64,000 bases of DNA from Bdellovibrionales bacterium. Its GTDB lineage: Bacteria; Bdellovibrionota; Bdellovibrionia; Bdellovibrionales; UBA1609. The stretch is taken from assembly GCA_965243065.1 (NCBI GenBank), contig CBDETO010000005.1, positions 1,470,672 to 1,534,671 of the forward strand, given 5' to 3'. The position numbers and the translations under genes were made by a program. The notes beneath the pieces were generated by a model. It was not told the origin of the DNA, ran no database searches, and saw only the letters and a list, made by a program, of their open reading frames with translations. Of the stretch, positions 15,236-31,101 are shown piece after piece. How positions within the stretch are numbered: the first letter of the stretch is position 1; every line of letters begins with the position of its first letter.

Positions 15236-15386
15236 TTATCCCCCTTTTTTTATTGTTTATGCTCAGATTATGTATATACCCTTTTAGGCACGCTCCTATA
15301 AATGACAACACTGAGTGCAAAAATAAAAAAGTCAAGATAACCATGTATGATTTCATCAACTGTTTTCACAGAAGCTGAATGAAAAA

Positions 15387-15525
15387 TCTTTACGGGAATT
15401 TTACGGGATGTTCTGGTTAGGAGAGGGAAAAAGCGGTTAGCAACGGGAAGCAAGAGTGGCTTTTTGTTGAACGGTTCAGTTATTTTTGACTTTTGAAACT
15501 CTCCCCCTGCGTCCTGTATCCCCGA
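15387..15525 (+). repeat. Conserved element arm, copy a, ending in a degenerate tRNA-Pro core
   Basis: TCTTTACGGGAATTTTACGGGATGTTCTGGTTAGGAGAGG..GCGGTTAGCAACGGGAAGCAAGAGTGG.TTTTTGTTGAACGGTTCAGTTATTTTTGACTTTTGAAAC aligns with 21527-21650. It ends GCGTCCTGTaTCCCCGA, against GCGTCCTGTCTCCCCGA at 21649-21665. Confidence 0.8.
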
Positions 15526-18594: not shown

Positions 18595-18954
18595 GTGGAA
18601 AGGTTCTATAAGAGAGTTCCAAAAGAGCAAAGGTTCTTAATTTTGTCAGAGCATTTCAATGGCGGTTTGAGTATATCTGAGTTATCTAGGAAGTATCAGA
18701 TTCAACCAGCTACGATCTATAAATGGAGGGAGAAGATGAAAAAAGAAGAGGAGAAGCTTTCTTTTGATTCAAAGCCACTTTTGGAAGAGATAAAGCACTT
18801 AAAGCAAGAAAACAGTCTTTTAAAGGAAACAGTGGCTCAACAGGCATTGGATATCACCACACTCAAGCAGTTCAATGAGTTTGTTAAAAAAAAGCGGAAG
18901 GAAGAAAGACGGAGTATGCAAAAGAGTTCCTTGAGGGTCAGAGGATCGAAGTGA
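18595..18954 (+). CDS. IS3-family transposase OrfA
   Basis: HTH region GGLSISELSRKYQIQPATIYKWREK plus a leucine-zipper-like segment. GGAGG lies upstream of the GTG start. Confidence 0.85.
   Translation: MERFYKRVPKEQRFLILSEHFNGGLSISELSRKYQIQPATIYKWREKMKKEEEKLSFDSKPLLEEIKHLKQENSLLKETVAQQALDITTLKQFNEFVKKKRKEERRSMQKSSLRVRGSK
18888..18894 (+). promoter_or_regulatory. Programmed -1 ribosomal frameshift heptamer A AAA AAG of the IS3 element
   Basis: In the orfA frame the sequence reads GTT AAA AAA AAG. I translated the -1 frame from here (KAEGRKTEYAKEFLEGQRIEVSKKR..) and it is stop-free into orfB. Confidence 0.7.
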
Positions 18955-19787
18955 GCAAGAAGAGGTTTTGTGAGTTGATTGATATTCACCCAAAGTCCAT
19001 TCACAAGGGTAAAAAGGTTAAGGCCATTTCCACTGCCAAGAGGAAGCGAGAGGAAATGGATAAAGAAGTGTTGTCAGGGATTAAGGAAGTGATAAGGCAC
19101 CGTAGTACTTATGGTTATAAGCGGGTGACAGCTTTATATAATAGGAAGAGGGTGAACAATGGTCTGAGCAGGTATAACAAGAAGCGTATTTATCGTGTCA
19201 TGCGGGATAATGGTTTGTTGCTTCCGAAATCAGGTATTTTGAAGAGGGAGCATAAGGGCACGGGTAAAGTGATGACGTTATATTCAAACACCAGGTGGTG
19301 TTCAGATTGTTTTGAGATACATTGTTTTAATGGGGAGAAGGTGTATGTGTGTTTTGTTTTAGATAGTCATGACAGGGAGATAATAAGCTTTGTGTCTTCT
19401 TATCGTCCGTTGTTATCGGAAGATATTCAGAGTTTAATGGTTATGGCTGTAGAGCGTAGATTTTCAGGCGGAAGAGCTTCTAGGGAGATTGAGTTTTTAT
19501 CGGATCGGGGGAGTATTTACAGGGCTTATAATGTGCAGGCTTTAGCCAGGCGGTTGGGCTTAAAATCGTGTTTTACAAGAGCTTATAGTCCTGAAAGCAA
19601 TGGTATGGCGGAAGCCTTTGTGAAGACATTAAAGAGGGATTATGTGTATGTGAGTGATTGTTATGATGCACAGACAACGATGAAACTATTGGAGCAGTGG
19701 ATATATGATTATAATCACAGGGCACCGCATTCCAGCCTTGGAATGCGTTCTCCGGTGGAGTATATTAAATTAACACAATCGAGGTAG
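18951..19787 (+). CDS. IS3-family transposase OrfB (DDE), normally expressed as an OrfAB fusion
   Basis: ..RWCSDCFEI.., ..FLSDRGSIYRAYNVQALARRLGLK..YSPESNGMAEAFVKTLKRDYV..YNHRAPHSSLGMRSPVEY closely follows the IS2 InsD pattern. The -1 frame is open from the slippery site to 18951. Confidence 0.85.
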   Translation: MSKKRFCELIDIHPKSIHKGKKVKAISTAKRKREEMDKEVLSGIKEVIRHRSTYGYKRVTALYNRKRVNNGLSRYNKKRIYRVMRDNGLLLPKSGILKREHKGTGKVMTLYSNTRWCSDCFEIHCFNGEKVYVCFVLDSHDREIISFVSSYRPLLSEDIQSLMVMAVERRFSGGRASREIEFLSDRGSIYRAYNVQALARRLGLKSCFTRAYSPESNGMAEAFVKTLKRDYVYVSDCYDAQTTMKLLEQWIYDYNHRAPHSSLGMRSPVEYIKLTQSR

Positions 19788-21526: not shown

Positions 21527-21650
21527 TTTTACGGGAAATTTACGGGATGTCCTGGTTAGGAGAGGTGAGAAGCGGTTAGCAACGGGAAACAAGAGTGGTT
21601 TTTTGTTGAACGGTTCAGTTATTTTTGACTTTTGAAACCCTATGCCTGCG
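21527..21650 (+). repeat. Conserved element arm, copy b, immediately left of the intact tRNA-Pro core repeat
   Basis: TTTTACGGGAAATTTACGGGATGTCCTGGTTAGGAGAGGTGAGAAGCGGTTAGCAACGGGAAACAAGAGTGG..GTTATTTTTGACTTTTGAAAC aligns with copies a (15387) and c (31001). Confidence 0.8.
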
Positions 21651-25293: not shown

Positions 25294-25564
25294 TTTTTAT
25301 TAAAATGTAGTTTTCAAACTATGTTTATTTGTTTAATTTTTTTCAGATAAGAACCGATAATATTTTTATGCATTACTTAGTTGGTGGGTTGTTCCTCTTT
25401 TGTTCAATAAGTTTTGTTCGTTTCATTTACTTATACTATTCCAGTAAAAGAGATTTCGAAAAATTAAATCAACCTTATAATATAGGGAATTATATAAGAA
25501 GCCTTAGAAATGTAGATTGTCCTTGACCCCCAAAAAGAGGCTACCTCCTAAATAAGGAGGAAAA

Positions 25565-25924
25565 GTGGAAAGGTTCTATAAGAGAGTTCCAAAAGAGCAA
25601 AGGTTCTTAATTTTGTCAGAGCATTTCAATGGCGGTTTGAGTATATCTGAGTTATCTAGGAAGTATCAGATTCAACCAGCTACGATCTATAAATGGAGGG
25701 AGAAGATGAAAAAAGAAGAGGAGAAGCTTTCTTTTGATTCAAAGCCACTTTTGGAAGAGATAAAGCACTTAAAGCAAGAAAACAGTCTTTTAAAGGAAAC
25801 AGTGGCTCAACAGGCATTGGATATCACCACACTCAAGCAGTTCAATGAGTTTGTTAAAAAAAAGCGGAAGGAAGAAAGACGGAGTATGCAAAAGAGTTCC
25901 TTGAGGGTCAGAGGATCGAAGTGA
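25565..25924 (+). CDS. IS3-family transposase OrfA (copy 2)
   Basis: The translation is identical to the copy 1 OrfA (119 aa). Confidence 0.85.
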   Translation: MERFYKRVPKEQRFLILSEHFNGGLSISELSRKYQIQPATIYKWREKMKKEEEKLSFDSKPLLEEIKHLKQENSLLKETVAQQALDITTLKQFNEFVKKKRKEERRSMQKSSLRVRGSK

Positions 25925-26739
25925 GCAAGAAGAGGTTTTGTGAGTTGATTGATATTCACCCAAAGTCCATTCACAAGGGTAAAAAGGTTAAGGCCATTTC
26001 CACTGCCAAGAGGAAGCGAGAGGAAATGGATAAAGAAGTGTTGTCAGGGATTAAGGAAGTGATAAGGCACCGTAGTACTTATGGTTATAAGCGGGTGACA
26101 GCTTTATATAATAGGAAGAGGGTGAACAATGGTCTGAGCAGGTATAACAAGAAGCGTATTTATCGTGTCATGCGGGATAATGGTTTGTTGCTTCCGAAAT
26201 CAGGTATTTTGAAGAGGGAGCATAAGGGCACGGGTAAAGTGATGACGTTATATTCAAACACCAGGTGGTGTTCAGATTGTTTTGAGATACATTGTTTTAA
26301 TGGGGAGAAGGTGTATGTGTGTTTTGTTTTAGATAGTCATGACAGGGAGATAATAAGCTTTGTGTCTTCTTATCGTCCGTTGTTATCGGAAGATATTCAG
26401 AGTTTAATGGTTATGGCTGTAGAGCGTAGATTTTCAGGCGGAAGAGCTTCTAGGGAGATTGAGTTTTTATCGGATCGGGGGAGTATTTACAGGGCTTATA
26501 ATGTGCAGGCTTTAGCCAGGCGGTTGGGCTTAAAATCGTGTTTTACAAGAGCTTATAGTCCTGAAAGCAATGGTATGGCGGAAGCCTTTGTGAAGACATT
26601 AAAGAGGGATTATGTGTATGTGAGTGATTGTTATGATGCACAGACAACGATGAAACTATTGGAGCAGTGGATGATTATAATCACAGGGCACCGCATTCCA
26701 GCCTTGGAATGCGTTCTCCGGTGGAGTATATTAAATTAA
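25921..26739 (+). pseudogene. IS3-family transposase OrfB (copy 2), C-terminus frameshifted
   Basis: Identical to copy 1 up to ..KLLEQW. The 4-nt deletion then replaces IYDYNHRAPHSSLGMRSPVEYIKLTQSR with MIIITGHRIPALECVLRWSILN. Confidence 0.8.
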
Positions 26740-28585
26740 CACAATCGAGGTAGCCAAAAATGGGGGCCAATCCAAGATTTTTCACCTGATCAACAAGTTC
26801 TTAGTTCAAAAGTACGAAATACACTTAAACAACCAATAAACAAGTCAAATATCCTACCCCTAACCCCTGCTATATTAGATAGTACTTGGGAAGGAGCTAA
26901 TATAATGCGCCAGTATTTGTGTATAGATGACAATTTCTATGAAGGAATTTCTAAATTATCTAATGAAACAATAGAAAATTTTTCTGATTTGTCCGCTAAA
27001 CTCAAAACCTATGAACATAGTTTTCAAGGGTTAACAGAGGGTAGTCTAAGCAAAATTAAAGGGCATATAGCTGAAAGTCACATTGCTGAGCATTTTAAAG
27101 AGGCTGGAATAGCAGTTACTTGGCCGGAAGCTTCTAATCAAGAAGGGTTTGATCTATTATTTAATGGGAATCCCATACAATCAAAATTTATTGAAGACGC
27201 CAATAATCTTGTGGAACACTTTCAAAAATATCCAGATATACCTGTTGTTATTCCTTCTGATGCAAACAACATACCGGAAACAGCCTTTCATTTTGACCCT
27301 TCTGAAGGTATAGGTAATTTATTTAATTATCTTAAAGACAATCCTGAAAACGCAGTTATTGTGGATCACAAACTCTCTAATGTGAATTTAACAGAGAGTA
27401 TTGAACAAGGTTCAGACTTAGCCACAGGAACTGTTGATTTTAATTTTCCTTGGGTTACTGCTGCTTTTTCTAGCTTTCGTGAATTAAATCTTCTTATAAA
27501 TAATGACACGGATATTTCTTCATCTATTAAAAATATGGGGCTTGATGTAGCTGGTGTCGGTATAGGCGCAATGACCGGCGGAGAAATTGGAGCAATAGCA
27601 GGTTCTATTATCCCTGGCCCTGGAACAGTTATCGGAGCTGGTATGGGTGTTGTTATTGGTGCTATTATGGGTCGTAACATTACAAATGATATAAAACAAG
27701 AACCGCTAAAAGAAGCTATAAAAAAACTAAAGAAGTCAAGAAGAAGATTGAAATTAGAAGCGAAAAAAATACAAGAAAAATATAATCAACAGTTTAATAA
27801 ATTCAAAAAAGAGGAACAAAATAAAATAAATTGTAAAGCCAAAGAAAGCAAGGAAACTGTAAGAAGAAAAATAAGCACTCTTAGAAGATGGGCAGTGAAT
27901 CGAGAAAAGCTTTCAGATAGTTTAAAAACCAATCTGTTAAAAAATATTGAGGATCAAGGACAAGTAAAACATATTAAGAAAAAAGAAACACCAAGTTTGA
28001 TAGAATATTTATGGCTAGATCAAAAAATGATAATGCTAATAGCGTTTCAAAGAAATATAAACAAATATAAAAAGTATTTCATAGAAAGCTTTACACAAAA
28101 TAAATTTAAAGATAAGGGAGATTTGTTTCAGGAATTTTCTAAAAAAGGATTGTGTCAAAAATATATTTTATCAGAAATAAAAAAATCAGAAGAACAAAGA
28201 AAAACAAAGGAAAACTATTTGATGAATGAAATTAAAAAGGAACAAGCAGGTATATTGAAACTCCGTGCTAAATCTATGAAACGTCTCGCTTCTAAGGTGG
28301 AAAAATATATTGAACAGATAAAGAGAGATTTATTTCCATATATTAAGGACATAAAAAGCTATCATGATCTTTTAGAAAAAGAAACTAAAAAATTAGGAAG
28401 AAAGCCTGCCTAAGATAGCTATTCTATTAAAACAGATTTTTAATAAGACCTTTACTCATCAAAGGCATATTAAACATTATAACTTTTTAATCGATATTAA
28501 AATAAAGAAGTCAGATTAGTTTATTCAGATTACATATATAAAAATCTTTCATTGTCGACAGGGTATGAAAAATGATGCCTACCAA

Positions 28586-28610
28586 CTGTCTACTTTTCAG
28601 GGACGATCCA
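28586..28610 (+). repeat. Left copy of a 25-nt inverted repeat bracketing the three-gene cassette
   Basis: CTGTCTACTTTTCAGGGACGATCCA. The reverse complement of 30906-30930 is CTGTCCACTTTTCAGGGACGATCCA (24/25 identical). Confidence 0.85.
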
Positions 28611-28672
28611 TGAACCTACCATATAATCTAACTGTTACTTGTCTGTGATTGTTACCTAATTATCCAATTCCC

Positions 28673-29095
28673 CTATTTTATTCCATTTAACCTTGGAGTC
28701 CATTTAGAATCAGAAGCAAGCTTTTTTGCATAATTTATTTTTTCATCCACTTCTATATTTTCAGGTAAGTTGATATCAGCATGGTAAGGGTTATCTTTTA
28801 TAGGTGTTGCCTGAACTGTTCCACCATTTTTTCTCACATCTCTAGCTTCTATTTTTGCCCAGCCATAAAAAGATCGTTTTCTTCCTTCTGTTCGTGATCT
28901 TAACTCTGCATTTTTATCTTGAATTTGAGTAAGTATTTTTTTTGAGCAAAAACCAAAACGATCTACTGAAAGAGATCTGCTTTCTTTATAAAAGAAAATA
29001 TTAAAATCTATATTACCTCTGATAGCTCTCTTTACTTGTCCACTAGAAAAAACAGCTCTTCCAAGAAAATCATCATCGTGAATATTTTTATGCAT
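28673..29095 (-). CDS. Hypothetical protein (140 aa), last gene of the three-gene cassette
   Basis: The ORF overlaps the upstream gene by 8 nt (ATGCATAA). Conserved-looking segments are LSVDRFGF and FYGWAKIEARDVRKNGGTVQATPIKDNPYHADINLPE. I cannot assign a family. Confidence 0.5.
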   Translation of the reverse strand: MHKNIHDDDFLGRAVFSSGQVKRAIRGNIDFNIFFYKESRSLSVDRFGFCSKKILTQIQDKNAELRSRTEGRKRSFYGWAKIEARDVRKNGGTVQATPIKDNPYHADINLPENIEVDEKINYAKKLASDSKWTPRLNGIK

Positions 29096-29861
29096 ATTGA
29101 TATTTTGTGTCCGTAGTAGAATTATAAATTACATTCTGTATTTTAAAAGGAAGTAGATCCTTATCAGGAGTAACCACTAATGAGGTTTTTTTTGTAAAGT
29201 CTTCATTTAAAGAGTACTTTGTTTCTTTGTTGAGTTTTGCAAATGTTTTCCATAAAAGATCATAAGGGAAATCTTCAATATTATCACAACGAAATCGACT
29301 GTTTTTCCCATCTAGTGTGGAAAAGTATGCAACACTACCATTAGAATCACAAAGTATTAATATTCCTCTCCCTTTATAAGGATTACAATCAATAGCAATT
29401 TCTTGATTTTCTGTGGGATATATATAATACTCATAATTGGGAAATTTTTTATAGACGGCATTTAAAATTTTTTGAGCATTTTCCTCTGCTATCTCACTAA
29501 AACTTTCAAAGCCTTCTTCTTCACACTCTTTATGTAAATTATCTAAAGTTTCATTTAGATTTTTTAAAATCTCATTCTTCATAATAATAAGACCTTGTTC
29601 CACTTCAGCCTCAATCTGTTGTATTTTCTCTTTAATTGAAGAATTTACTCTTATAGAGAAAGTCGTGAATAATACATTGTAATTGGATAAAAGTTTTGTA
29701 GTAGTGTCTTTTAGAACCACACGGTATTGAGTATCCAAATAAGATAGTTCTTCCTTCCAAGATGAAACGGAATTATCAAACTTTTCCAATGAAAAAGGAA
29801 CAGTATAAGCTTTAGATTTATTTGAAATAGATGATTGTTTTTTCCAAAATTGCCAATTCAT
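29088..29861 (-). CDS. Hypothetical protein (257 aa), middle gene of the three-gene cassette
   Basis: The start overlaps the upstream stop (TAATG). It has a central coiled-coil-like stretch and a C-terminal beta-rich segment YYIYPTENQEIAIDCNPYKGRGILILCDSNGSVAYFSTLDG. No family assigned. Confidence 0.5.
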   Translation of the reverse strand: MNWQFWKKQSSISNKSKAYTVPFSLEKFDNSVSSWKEELSYLDTQYRVVLKDTTTKLLSNYNVLFTTFSIRVNSSIKEKIQQIEAEVEQGLIIMKNEILKNLNETLDNLHKECEEEGFESFSEIAEENAQKILNAVYKKFPNYEYYIYPTENQEIAIDCNPYKGRGILILCDSNGSVAYFSTLDGKNSRFRCDNIEDFPYDLLWKTFAKLNKETKYSLNEDFTKKTSLVVTPDKDLLPFKIQNVIYNSTTDTKYQYA

Positions 29862-30517
29862 TAGAAACCCTCTATAAACTGTTTAGATTTTTTATAATTC
29901 TCTTCCAACTCTCCAATAATATTTATTGTATTGTCAGTATAGCCACTTGGGTAATGAACATTTACTTTGAAAAATGGGACAAAGTCTTTTTCAGTTTCTT
30001 GAAGCTGGGTATTTTGCTTTACCCTTTCCACCTTTCTGGCTGTAACATTGAACTGCTTTCCCCTCACATTATAAGATAGATCAATACTACGTATTTCCCC
30101 TTTATTACTTTCAAAATTTAAATGAGCACTGTCCATATTAACTACTTTTTCAATAAAGGACTGATATCCTAAATCATCCCTTATAAAATCAAAATTTATA
30201 CCAATAGCCTTGTAATTAATATTAAATAACTGAACATACTTAGAGCATATATCTTTTAAAGTATTCAAATTGTTTAAATTATCTGATTCATTAATATTAG
30301 GGTTTGAAAACTGAAATAGTGTTTTATTAGGTTCACCTATTATATTAAATCCGTTGCTATAATAGATTTGACTCACAACAGGTGTATTAAAAGAATTGCT
30401 TTTCTTTTGAAAACTTTCTGGAATAACTTTTTGATTCACCAAAAACTCATGATTCACAGATGCCACATGATCTTGCGTCACTAAAACTACTGAACAATTT
30501 ATTAATATTAATTGCAT
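29861..30517 (-). CDS. Hypothetical protein (218 aa), first gene of the three-gene cassette
   Basis: Clean ORF with a 660-nt AT-rich non-coding region upstream. No motif recognised. Confidence 0.5.
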   Translation of the reverse strand: MQLILINCSVVLVTQDHVASVNHEFLVNQKVIPESFQKKSNSFNTPVVSQIYYSNGFNIIGEPNKTLFQFSNPNINESDNLNNLNTLKDICSKYVQLFNINYKAIGINFDFIRDDLGYQSFIEKVVNMDSAHLNFESNKGEIRSIDLSYNVRGKQFNVTARKVERVKQNTQLQETEKDFVPFFKVNVHYPSGYTDNTINIIGELEENYKKSKQFIEGF

Positions 30518-30804
30518 ACCTTAATTAAATCTACTGAAAATTATCTTTTTATTTTTTAACACAGAAAACTATTTAAACGGCATGTTGTAACTTTCAAGCA
30601 GATTAAGAATAATGTGATAGGTTTTCTTGATTCGTCAAGCCTAAAGTACTGAAAGCCGATTTAATTCCTGTTTTTTCTACCCTGATATATATTCCAAATC
30701 AGATGTCTGAAGATTCTTTTCAAACAATTTATAATAAAAAATCTCCTTTTTTATTATCGTCATAAGCTTAAGACTACTTAAACACAGATTTAAAGTAAAA
30801 TTGA

Positions 30805-30900
30805 CCACTTTCGTACTTTTTTAGAAATTGTTCGCTACTTTTCTCTGATTTTTCCACTTTTTAGAAAGTTTCCACTTATTTTAAAAACTACTAAAAAAGA
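30805..30900 (+). repeat. Degenerate copies of the 42-nt iteron-like repeat
   Basis: ..CCACTTTCGTACTTTTTTAGAAA / TTGTTCGCTACTTTTCTCTGATTTTTCCACTTTTTAGAAAG / TTTCCACTTATTTTAAAAAC.. aligns with the unit TTTCCGCCTACTTTCCGCT + ..TTTTTCC.ATTT.TCAGAAAC at 17441-17662. Confidence 0.6.
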
Positions 30901-30905
30901 CTGAT

Positions 30906-30930
30906 TGGATCGTCCCTGAAAAGTGGACAG
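30906..30930 (-). repeat. Right copy of the 25-nt inverted repeat bracketing the three-gene cassette
   Basis: TGGATCGTCCCTGAAAAGTGGACAG on the plus strand. See 28586-28610. Confidence 0.85.
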
Positions 30931-31000
30931 GGAAAAACGGGACAATTTACCTCCAGAGGTTTACCTGTTTTACTTTTAAATAAAGTAACTTTTTACAAAA

Positions 31001-31101
31001 TCTTTACGGGAAATTTATGGGATATGCTGGGTAGGAGAGGTGAGAAGCAATTAGCAACGGAAAGTAAGAGTGGATTTTTGTTAAACGGTTCCGTTATTTT
31101 T
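31001..31101 (+). repeat. Conserved element arm, copy c, truncated by an IS1595 end fragment
   Basis: TCTTTACGGGAAATTTATGGGATATGCTGGGTAGGAGAGGTGAGAAGCAATTAGCAACGGAAAGTAAGAGTGGATTTTTGTTAAACGGTTCCGTTATTTTTCA aligns with copies a and b. The alignment stops where IS-end-like sequence begins. Confidence 0.75.

Follow-up and report, generated by a model that had tools for sequence, protein, structure and literature searches.

A mobile three-gene operon of undescribed protein families, bracketed by a 25-nt inverted repeat, in a Bdellovibrionales genome: a candidate conflict module

Background

Do three small overlapping genes that resemble no known family, lying between the arms of a nearly perfect inverted repeat at the edge of a genomic island, form a new mobile module, and is the repeat a part of it? 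The question is raised by positions 28,586 to 30,930 of a 64,000-nucleotide (nt) stretch of DNA from a Bdellovibrionales bacterium (GenBank assembly GCA_965243065.1, contig CBDETO010000005.1), the whole of which we call the window. A first-pass annotation, made from the letters alone, had described here an operon of three genes, which we term A, B and C, and had proposed a composite or invertible cassette with a candidate anti-phage or toxin-immunity system. Here, we report that the trio moves between genomes together with its leader, that B and C form its constant part and that its first gene is exchanged for others. The interest of the locus lies in these proteins and not in the eye-catching inverted repeat.

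Organization and distribution of the operon

All three genes are encoded on the minus strand. Gene A (30517..29861, an open reading frame (ORF) of 218 amino acids (aa)) comes first and is the swappable component; gene B, the second (29861..29088, 257 aa), is joined to it by a TAATG overlap (29863-29859), and gene C, the third (29095..28673, 140 aa), is joined to B by a ATGCATAA overlap (29095-29088). Reading of both junctions thus confirmed the earlier claim that these overlaps chain the ORFs of 218, 257 and 140 aa into one operon. A-B-C is a single coupled operon with purifying selection acting on its genes: comparison with three relatives gave dN/dS ratios of 0.14-0.39 overall, with A at 0.14-0.16, B at 0.21-0.39 and C at 0.25-0.38. 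The 2-kb stretch of the trio is the GC minimum of the window (28.7%). The statement that the trio belongs to no known family also stands: A and C matched nothing in Pfam, PADLOC or NCBIfam and B gave sub-threshold matches only, and homology to phage structural or metabolic proteins was found for none of the three proteins.

Hidden Markov models of the three families were run over the six-frame ORFs of 31 loci encoding a homologue of C. In 27 of these loci C is directly preceded by a B-like ORF, mostly with an overlap or a gap of <=2 nt at the junction, and the gene order of B-C in these loci fits that of type II toxin-antitoxin systems, in which the partner lies directly 5' of the effector. 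In two of the four exceptions the contig ends no more than about 200 nt from C; the other two are a locus with a weakly B-like upstream gene (L041) and one with an orphan C (L006). A high-GC chromosome from Binatia has the pair too (L008; hhalign probability 97.5% for B, identity 41% for C). B+C is the invariant core of the module. The complete trio was found in a further Bdellovibrionales genome (L007) and in metagenome contigs (L009, L010, L011, L020 and L021), with more distant trios in L012 and L024; synteny, which the first-pass annotation had proposed to look for in other genomes, is thus conserved in eight loci for the trio and in 27 of 31 for B+C. The same contigs recur across the homologue lists of A, B and C, and the few source names are those of "Oligoflexia bacterium" metagenome-assembled genomes.

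The flanks of the trio differ in every locus, and homologues of the proteins flanking it in the window are absent from all other loci examined. DNA homology to the two closest relatives, L020 and L021, is restricted to positions 28673-30809 of the window, which comprise the genes and about 290 nt of leader. The trio with about 300 nt of leader therefore moves between genomes as a unit. The 502-aa neighbour of the trio was considered as a fourth component and rejected, as no other locus has a homologue of it. A contig of a metagenome-assembled genome (GCA_028824845.1) is 99.96% identical to the window's locus over 5185 nt.

The protein families

Profile searches with C found at least 1007 clusters (50% identity) at E<=1e-3, 530 of them at E<=1e-10. 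Among the best 150 clusters listed all are stand-alone proteins of 92-184 aa, and of ten C-family proteins whose cluster names were looked up none is named. The FYGWA and NPYHADI segments pointed out by the first-pass annotation were located at residues 76-80 and 102-108. Among 71 diverse members S43, G78, W79, N102 and H105 are invariant and L11-G12-R13, V44-D45-R46 and F76 nearly so; in alignments of 37 and of 71 members, five residues never vary and about nine hardly do, and many of these are polar. The AlphaFold2 model of C is confident (pLDDT 93.2, pTM 0.87) and mixed alpha/beta, and Foldseek found no fold neighbour for it in the PDB (best E 0.09, TM-score 0.28) and no meaningful one among the viral models of BFVD. 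The 71 members had no meaningful match in Pfam or NCBIfam, the C and broad-C profiles had none among PDB sequences, and the window's C had none in PADLOC-DB v2.0 at E<=1. The C family and its fold are undescribed. The protein is basic (median isoelectric point 9.4 among close relatives), and its conserved polar site (R13, S43, D45, R46, N102, H105) suggests a small basic enzyme that most likely acts on nucleic acid or a nucleotide. An SGNH hydrolase, brought to mind by the residue order S-G-N-H, was rejected, as the distance from N102 to H105 is only 3 residues and no flavodoxin-like fold was matched. The orphan C (L006, 3046-3483) is 71% identical to the window's C and preceded by genes unrelated to A or B; at its N-terminus ~20 residues are replaced, the near-invariant LGR motif among them.

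Protein B, for which 43 homologues were found, consists of a variable N-terminal part of ~95 aa, a conserved acidic core (about residues 96-215, charge -8.2; ..ECEEEGFE.FSE.A..NA..IL...YPTEDREIAIDC...ILILCDSNGSVAYF...GKNSRFRCD) and a variable tail. The homologue of L032 is a minimal form of 128 aa comprising the core alone. Nine of 24 diverse B-family proteins match the PADLOC model PDC-M32A (best E 1.7e-6), which points to a distant relationship between B and this candidate defence protein; the window's own B matched only PDC-M08A in PADLOC-DB v2.0 (E 0.0064 over 38 residues). Searches of Pfam and NCBIfam gave sub-threshold matches only for the window's B and nothing meaningful for three distant homologues, and the B and broad-B profiles matched no PDB sequence. 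Among the remote gene-1 and B proteins scanned, the sole match to reach a Pfam cut-off was DUF7341 on the repetitive B protein of L013 (27.6 against a cut-off of 27 bits), and it was disregarded.

The first gene of the operon behaves differently. Family A precedes B in 8 loci, a second family, A2, of about 230-260 aa does so in 8, and short ORFs (102-141 aa) take this place in others. A2 has no detectable similarity to A, and remote homology of the two was rejected at an hhalign probability of about 0. Gene 1 is thus exchangeable between unrelated families, with B+C staying fixed. The 41 homologues of A are all about 215-220 aa long and 45-100% identical. The fold searches proposed in the first-pass annotation, made with Foldseek on AlphaFold2 models, led part of the way: C found no PDB match, as said, and A found weak AdoMetDC/TBP-like ones. 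The model of A (pLDDT 88.8, pTM 0.85) shows two tandem beta-alpha-beta-beta-beta-alpha halves; its best PDB matches are AdoMetDC/prozyme structures (E 7.7e-4, probability 0.99), the only PDB fold family matched at E<=1e-3, and TBP stands at rank 11 of the list. We tentatively assign to A a duplicated beta-alpha-beta3-alpha fold, AdoMetDC/TBP-like. That the halves might be sequence repeats was also considered and rejected, as no similarity between them was detected. A matched nothing in Pfam, NCBIfam or among PDB sequences, and nothing in PADLOC at E<=1. The A2 profile and the gene-1 protein of L041 had no match among PDB sequences either, and A, the A2 proteins of L008 and L013 and the A of L012 had none in NCBIfam, TIGR04255 included; the N-terminus of the 255-aa gene-1 protein of L041 may resemble that of the TIGR04255 family. 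The variant operon of this locus (L041, 920-2826) encodes the 255-aa protein, a 217-aa protein and a 179-aa C homologue, and the 217-aa protein, with WDGYGA...YPNPNGTITFEW, can be aligned to the B core in register (hhalign E 0.0045).

Possible role of the module

The gene layout, the scattered distribution, the enzyme-like conservation of C, the defence and toxin-antitoxin genes found nearby in many loci and the distant relationship of B to PDC-M32A suggest that the trio may be a self-contained, horizontally transferred module of the conflict type, toxin-antitoxin or anti-phage, a reading whose chances we put not far below even. C would be the effector or toxin enzyme, and B would bind and restrain it through the acidic conserved core, as neutraliser or adaptor, with the variable N-terminus of B tuning regulation. 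By analogy with the TBP-like domains of RnlA, A might be the substrate-binding or trigger-sensing subunit, a role that would explain its replacement by other gene-1 families. Indirect hints at an effector/partner pair are the basic C next to the acidic core of B and the truncation of the orphan C. In its wider form, the proposal would be that B+C with an exchangeable gene 1 constitutes a new and widespread anti-phage or toxin-antitoxin family, in which C has a new fold with an S-G-W-N-H signature and gene 1 is a swappable trigger sensor; this we consider plausible, with the balance tipped against it.

Several observations weigh against a conflict module. The fold match of A is weak (TM-score 0.32-0.37, halves without sequence similarity), and a first gene of 218 aa is atypical for type II toxin-antitoxin pairs, as is a B of 190-300 aa in which no DNA-binding domain was found. 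No toxin fold can be recognised in C, nor can a catalytic mechanism be named for it, and neither the B nor the C of the window matches the PDC-M32 models. Searches of all plasmid and phage records by tblastn with two members of C and the minimal B gave no match. About half of the loci lie in housekeeping surroundings, e.g. L007 between trxB/response regulator genes and mnmG, and L008 among genes for GST and oxidoreductases, and cross-matches of helicases and ATPases inflate the list of neighbours matched by PADLOC. These housekeeping surroundings, together with purifying selection on all three genes and the lack of any detected toxin, antitoxin or defence domain, would also suit an accessory cellular complex, e.g. 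a stress- or nucleic-acid-processing enzyme C with two partners, that is only incidentally mobile. We consider this unlikely in view of the sporadic distribution with unrelated flanks even between close relatives, the defence and toxin-antitoxin genes that are frequent neighbours, the exchange of gene 1, the truncation of the orphan C and the relationship of B to a PADLOC candidate derived from defence islands.

If C is an effector held by B, the trio would represent a compact immune or addiction module made solely of undescribed protein families. It would bring a new enzymatic activity to the bacterial conflict systems, with a fold absent from the PDB and a family of ~1000 clusters, and the exchange of gene 1 with B+C fixed would be a natural test of sensor-module swapping.

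Genomic context

The first-pass annotation placed the operon at the outer edge of a tRNA-Pro island, next to defence-like genes, and this was borne out. Between the tRNA-Pro and the trio a low-GC island spans 6410-26775 and carries insertion sequence (IS) copies and defence-type genes: three IS3-type transposase ORFs, an FtsK fragment, a PLD-type nuclease, an N6/N4 methylase, an AAA_14-DUF4143 ATPase, DUF4268, an RNA ligase with a PHA02142 OB domain and an IS1595 fragment. Two of the IS3-type ORFs (18951-19787 and 25921-26739) have near-identical Pfam domain matches. Rfam searches of the locus and of the whole window found two tRNAs only.

Vicinity to defence genes holds here and in about half of the other loci, where the surroundings are of defence, toxin-antitoxin or mobile type (a plain tally). 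The trio of L010 is accompanied by Fic, a methylase with a ResIII helicase, AAA_14-DUF4143 and PIN-TPR genes, that of L011 by a PT-TG polymorphic toxin, that of L020 by AbiEii and that of L021 by a GmrSD_C fragment and an IS. The distant trio of L012 (770-12417) lies between a SNF2/DEAD/NOV_C helicase gene and a cluster of DUF1156, HEPN_Swt1 and DUF499, arranged as if inserted into a larger defence locus. Strong PADLOC matches among 114 neighbour ORFs from 15 further loci included a type IIG restriction-modification protein (7.8e-300), DpdF (3.6e-217), mad2/mad3, AriA, OloB and PsyrT; many ordinary metabolic genes are also among these 114.

In the window, the left neighbour of the operon (26905-28413, plus strand) encodes the 502-aa protein, which has a central glycine-zipper segment. 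By eye its lysine-rich C-terminal half looks like a coiled coil, and it gave weak PADLOC matches to PDC-M09B (E 3.3e-7) and PDC-M72B. The right neighbour (33493-31178, minus strand), of 771 aa and without a family match, converges with the 502-aa gene.

Inverted repeat and leader

The left arm of the inverted repeat (28586..28610, CTGTCTACTTTTCAGGGACGATCCA) lies 63 nt beyond the stop codon of C and the right arm (30906..30930, TGGATCGTCCCTGAAAAGTGGACAG) 388 nt upstream of the start codon of A; as first described, they bracket the trio and are complementary at 24 of 25 positions. The two arms are the only copies of the 25-mer in the window at <=3 mismatches, with 0 expected from 100 shuffles, and still the only ones at <=7 mismatches. 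The inverted repeat is therefore real and not due to chance. No further copy was found in 40 related loci, in JGI metagenome contigs or in viral contigs, and in these data the 25-mer is thus not a common dispersed repeat, an outcome that the first-pass annotation had considered. The arms are absent from every other locus carrying the module, and the mobile unit (28673-30809) does not reach them, leaving 63 nt to the left arm and 97 nt to the right one. The repeat is thus not part of the module; it is a feature of the insertion site in this strain.

Further claims made about the bracket were not supported. A degenerate partner arm was said to lie beside each copy; DNA folding of 28545-28615 and 30900-30985 gave short predicted stems, not convincingly better than those of shuffled sequences (z-scores -1.15 and -2.08), in which the repeat is not paired consistently with the named partners. 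The similarity between the arm regions ends sharply at 25 nt, and a reading of the arms as two small palindromic elements is therefore not supported. Nor is the proposal of a composite or invertible cassette, given the absence of the repeat from the other loci with the module, and of a target-site duplication, an adjoining recombinase or, within the window, a matching IS end. No target-site duplication of 2-10 nt is present (flanks ...CCTACCAA|CTGTC and GACAG|GGAAAAAC), the scan of ORFs of >=120 aa over 2.6-38.4 kb turned up DDE transposases as the only recombination enzymes and no site-specific recombinase, and the 25-mer is not the end of an IS of the window: the IS3-type element at 25508-26775 has different ends, and the window holds no approximate copy of the 25-mer besides the arms. 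The orientation of the segment is the same in four assemblies of the locus (the window, L001, L002 and L003). Three independent short-read assemblies (L002, L003 and L004) break at the left arm, two as scaffolds with a 10-N gap over 28600/28602-28642 and the third as a contig starting at 28643; the gap takes in the inner end of the left arm and a further 32 nt. No break occurs at the right arm, which L001 and L002 read through.

What, then, are the arms? The explanation that ranks highest, in itself unlikely, is that the module inserted into a pre-existing palindrome, a hairpin or terminator between the convergent genes of 502 and 771 aa (26905-28413 (+) and 33493-31178 (-)), and that the arms mark the split target site. 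It agrees with the convergence of these genes, with arms that are the sole similarity of the two flanks and end sharply, with a homology block of the module wholly inside the arms, and with the other module loci, which have no such arms, and the missing target duplication. The empty site, however, was not found, as a look-up of the 771-aa neighbour returned nothing; it does not account for the 63 nt (left) and 97 nt (right) that separate the arms from the homology block, positions 30817-30882 of the right-hand stretch match L020, and a perfect stem of 25 bp is long for a terminator. It is less probable still that a non-autonomous mobile insertion cassette (28586-30930), with the arms as its terminal inverted repeats, carries the trio as cargo and is moved in trans by a transposase encoded elsewhere. 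A low-GC segment of 2345 bp between terminal repeats identical at 24 of 25 positions, in an IS-rich locus and with the arms just outside the segment common to relatives, has the look of such a cassette, but its flanks do not repeat, the ends of the IS at 25508-26775 differ, no other copy of the 25-mer was found in the window, in other loci or in the JGI metagenome and viral contigs, and the relatives carry the module without such repeats. The inner tips of the arms read 5'-TG...CA-3', which we take to be typical of IS3-type ends; if so, the element bodies belong outside the cassette, and none is there. Ranked last, and highly improbable, is an invertible, phase-variable segment that switches the operon through the 25-nt sites. 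Known invertible segments are flanked by inverted repeats of such size, and the three assemblies broken at the left arm hint at heterogeneity. Inversion predicts breaks at both arms, however, and they occur at the left one only, 32 nt inward; a serine or tyrosine recombinase is missing from the ORFs scanned, the arms are not dyad-symmetric, the four assemblies show a single orientation, and the promoter-like sites lie inside the segment, so that its inversion would not obviously switch expression.

The leader (30518..30905, minus strand), reported earlier as 390 nt, measures 388 nt from the start of A (30517) to the right arm (30906). Its part at 30518-30809 is homologous to the leader of the relatives, the DNA homology to L020 and L021 ending at about 30800-30809. 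Directly upstream of A these relatives have a small ORF of 62-74 aa, intact in L020 (1713-1937) and L021 (8379-8567), with the sequence MN..K.SQP.DLKYISE.RKKEVEQVFNTLGL...MPFKQFSILK. Its copy in the window (30518-30809, minus strand) is a remnant decayed by stops and frameshifts, and the window's leader may thus hold a decayed fourth small gene. On the minus strand, 30638-30609 and 30597-30568 hold promoter-like hexamers, which are no more than matches to the consensus. Short direct repeats of the AAAGTRG type follow at 30810-30905; just inside the right arm there are 3 within 50 nt, compared with a background of 0.41 per kb per strand. Both 25-nt arms contain GAAAAGT(G/A)GACAG, and L020 has similar GAAAGTAGGCGGAAAC repeats in the corresponding position (1340-1440). 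The AAAGT(G/A)G motifs are possibly shared protein-binding, operator or iteron sites. The leader and the locus had no Rfam match.

A dispersed repeat of about 105-150 nt and 80-88% identity (...TTTACGGGAAATTTACGGGAT..GGTTAGGAGAGG..AGCGGTTAGCAACGGGAAGCAAGAGTGG.TTTTTGTTGAACGGTTCAGTTATTTTT...) was also observed in the window (30997-31101, 21528-21626 and 15383-15487) and in L020 (5792-5898 and 3906-3993). One copy, which lies 65 nt beyond the right arm, is truncated. Without a match in Rfam, the repeat could be a miniature inverted-repeat transposable element or a small RNA gene.

Relation to described systems

No component protein of the trio matched a catalogued defence system among the models of PADLOC-DB v2.0. 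One of the systems nearest to the trio is PDC-M32, an untested two-gene PADLOC candidate (M32A + M32B) for which we found one incidental mention, in a survey of S. meliloti prophages (PMC12429752). The trio resembles it in the matches of 9 of 24 B-family proteins to M32A, in the multi-gene layout and in the small second gene. A protein of an S. meliloti prophage scores E 7.5e-153 with PDC-M32A (PMC12429752), from which we infer that M32A is much longer than B; the similarity of the two is probably confined to one shared domain. Literature searches on PDC-M08, PDC-M09 and TIGR04255 found nothing.

For protein A, the nearest functional analogue would be the RnlA toxin, whose two tandem TBP-like domains include one, TBP1, needed for RNA substrate binding (PMC8266594). 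Compared with RnlA/LsoA of the RnlAB anti-phage toxin-antitoxin system, the model of A also has a tandem beta-alpha-beta3-alpha pair, with TBP among its Foldseek matches. In RnlA, however, the TBP-like domains are fused to a HEPN RNase, whereas A stands as a protein of its own and C, being mixed alpha/beta, is no HEPN protein, and RnlA is absent from the top 50 Foldseek matches of A. With the AdoMetDC fold (PDB 5tvf, 6bm7, 1msv and 1jl0) A shares two similar alpha/beta halves, but at a TM-score of 0.32-0.37 the identity is 7-10%, sequence profiles give no match, A is the shorter by about 100 residues and nothing suggests a pyruvoyl enzyme.

Gene cassettes bracketed by near-perfect inverted repeats are known as mobile insertion cassettes or composite transposons and as invertible segments of the Hin/Gin type. 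The near-perfect inverted repeats of about 25 nt around the trio are like theirs, but in the data searched the trio has no target duplication, cognate transposase or invertase, second copy or alternative orientation, and the same genes occur elsewhere without the repeats.

Type II and tripartite toxin-antitoxin operons include paaR2-paaA2-parE2 and the toxin-antitoxin-chaperone systems. A, B and C match no toxin, antitoxin or chaperone family; in particular, searches of Pfam and NCBIfam with the window's B and C, the 71 members of C and the three distant B homologues, and of the PDB with the B and C family profiles, found no recognised toxin or antitoxin superfamily. The large B without a detectable DNA-binding domain and the AdoMetDC/TBP-like fold of A have no counterpart there. 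The trio is nevertheless like these operons in its small, overlapping and co-transcribed genes with a basic protein after an acidic partner, in its sporadic horizontal distribution in islands with toxin-antitoxin and defence neighbours, and in the truncation of the effector copy left without a partner (L006). Small coupled operons that move horizontally and reside in islands are a familiar type of system; the three families, the fold of C and the exchangeable gene 1 are what is undescribed here.

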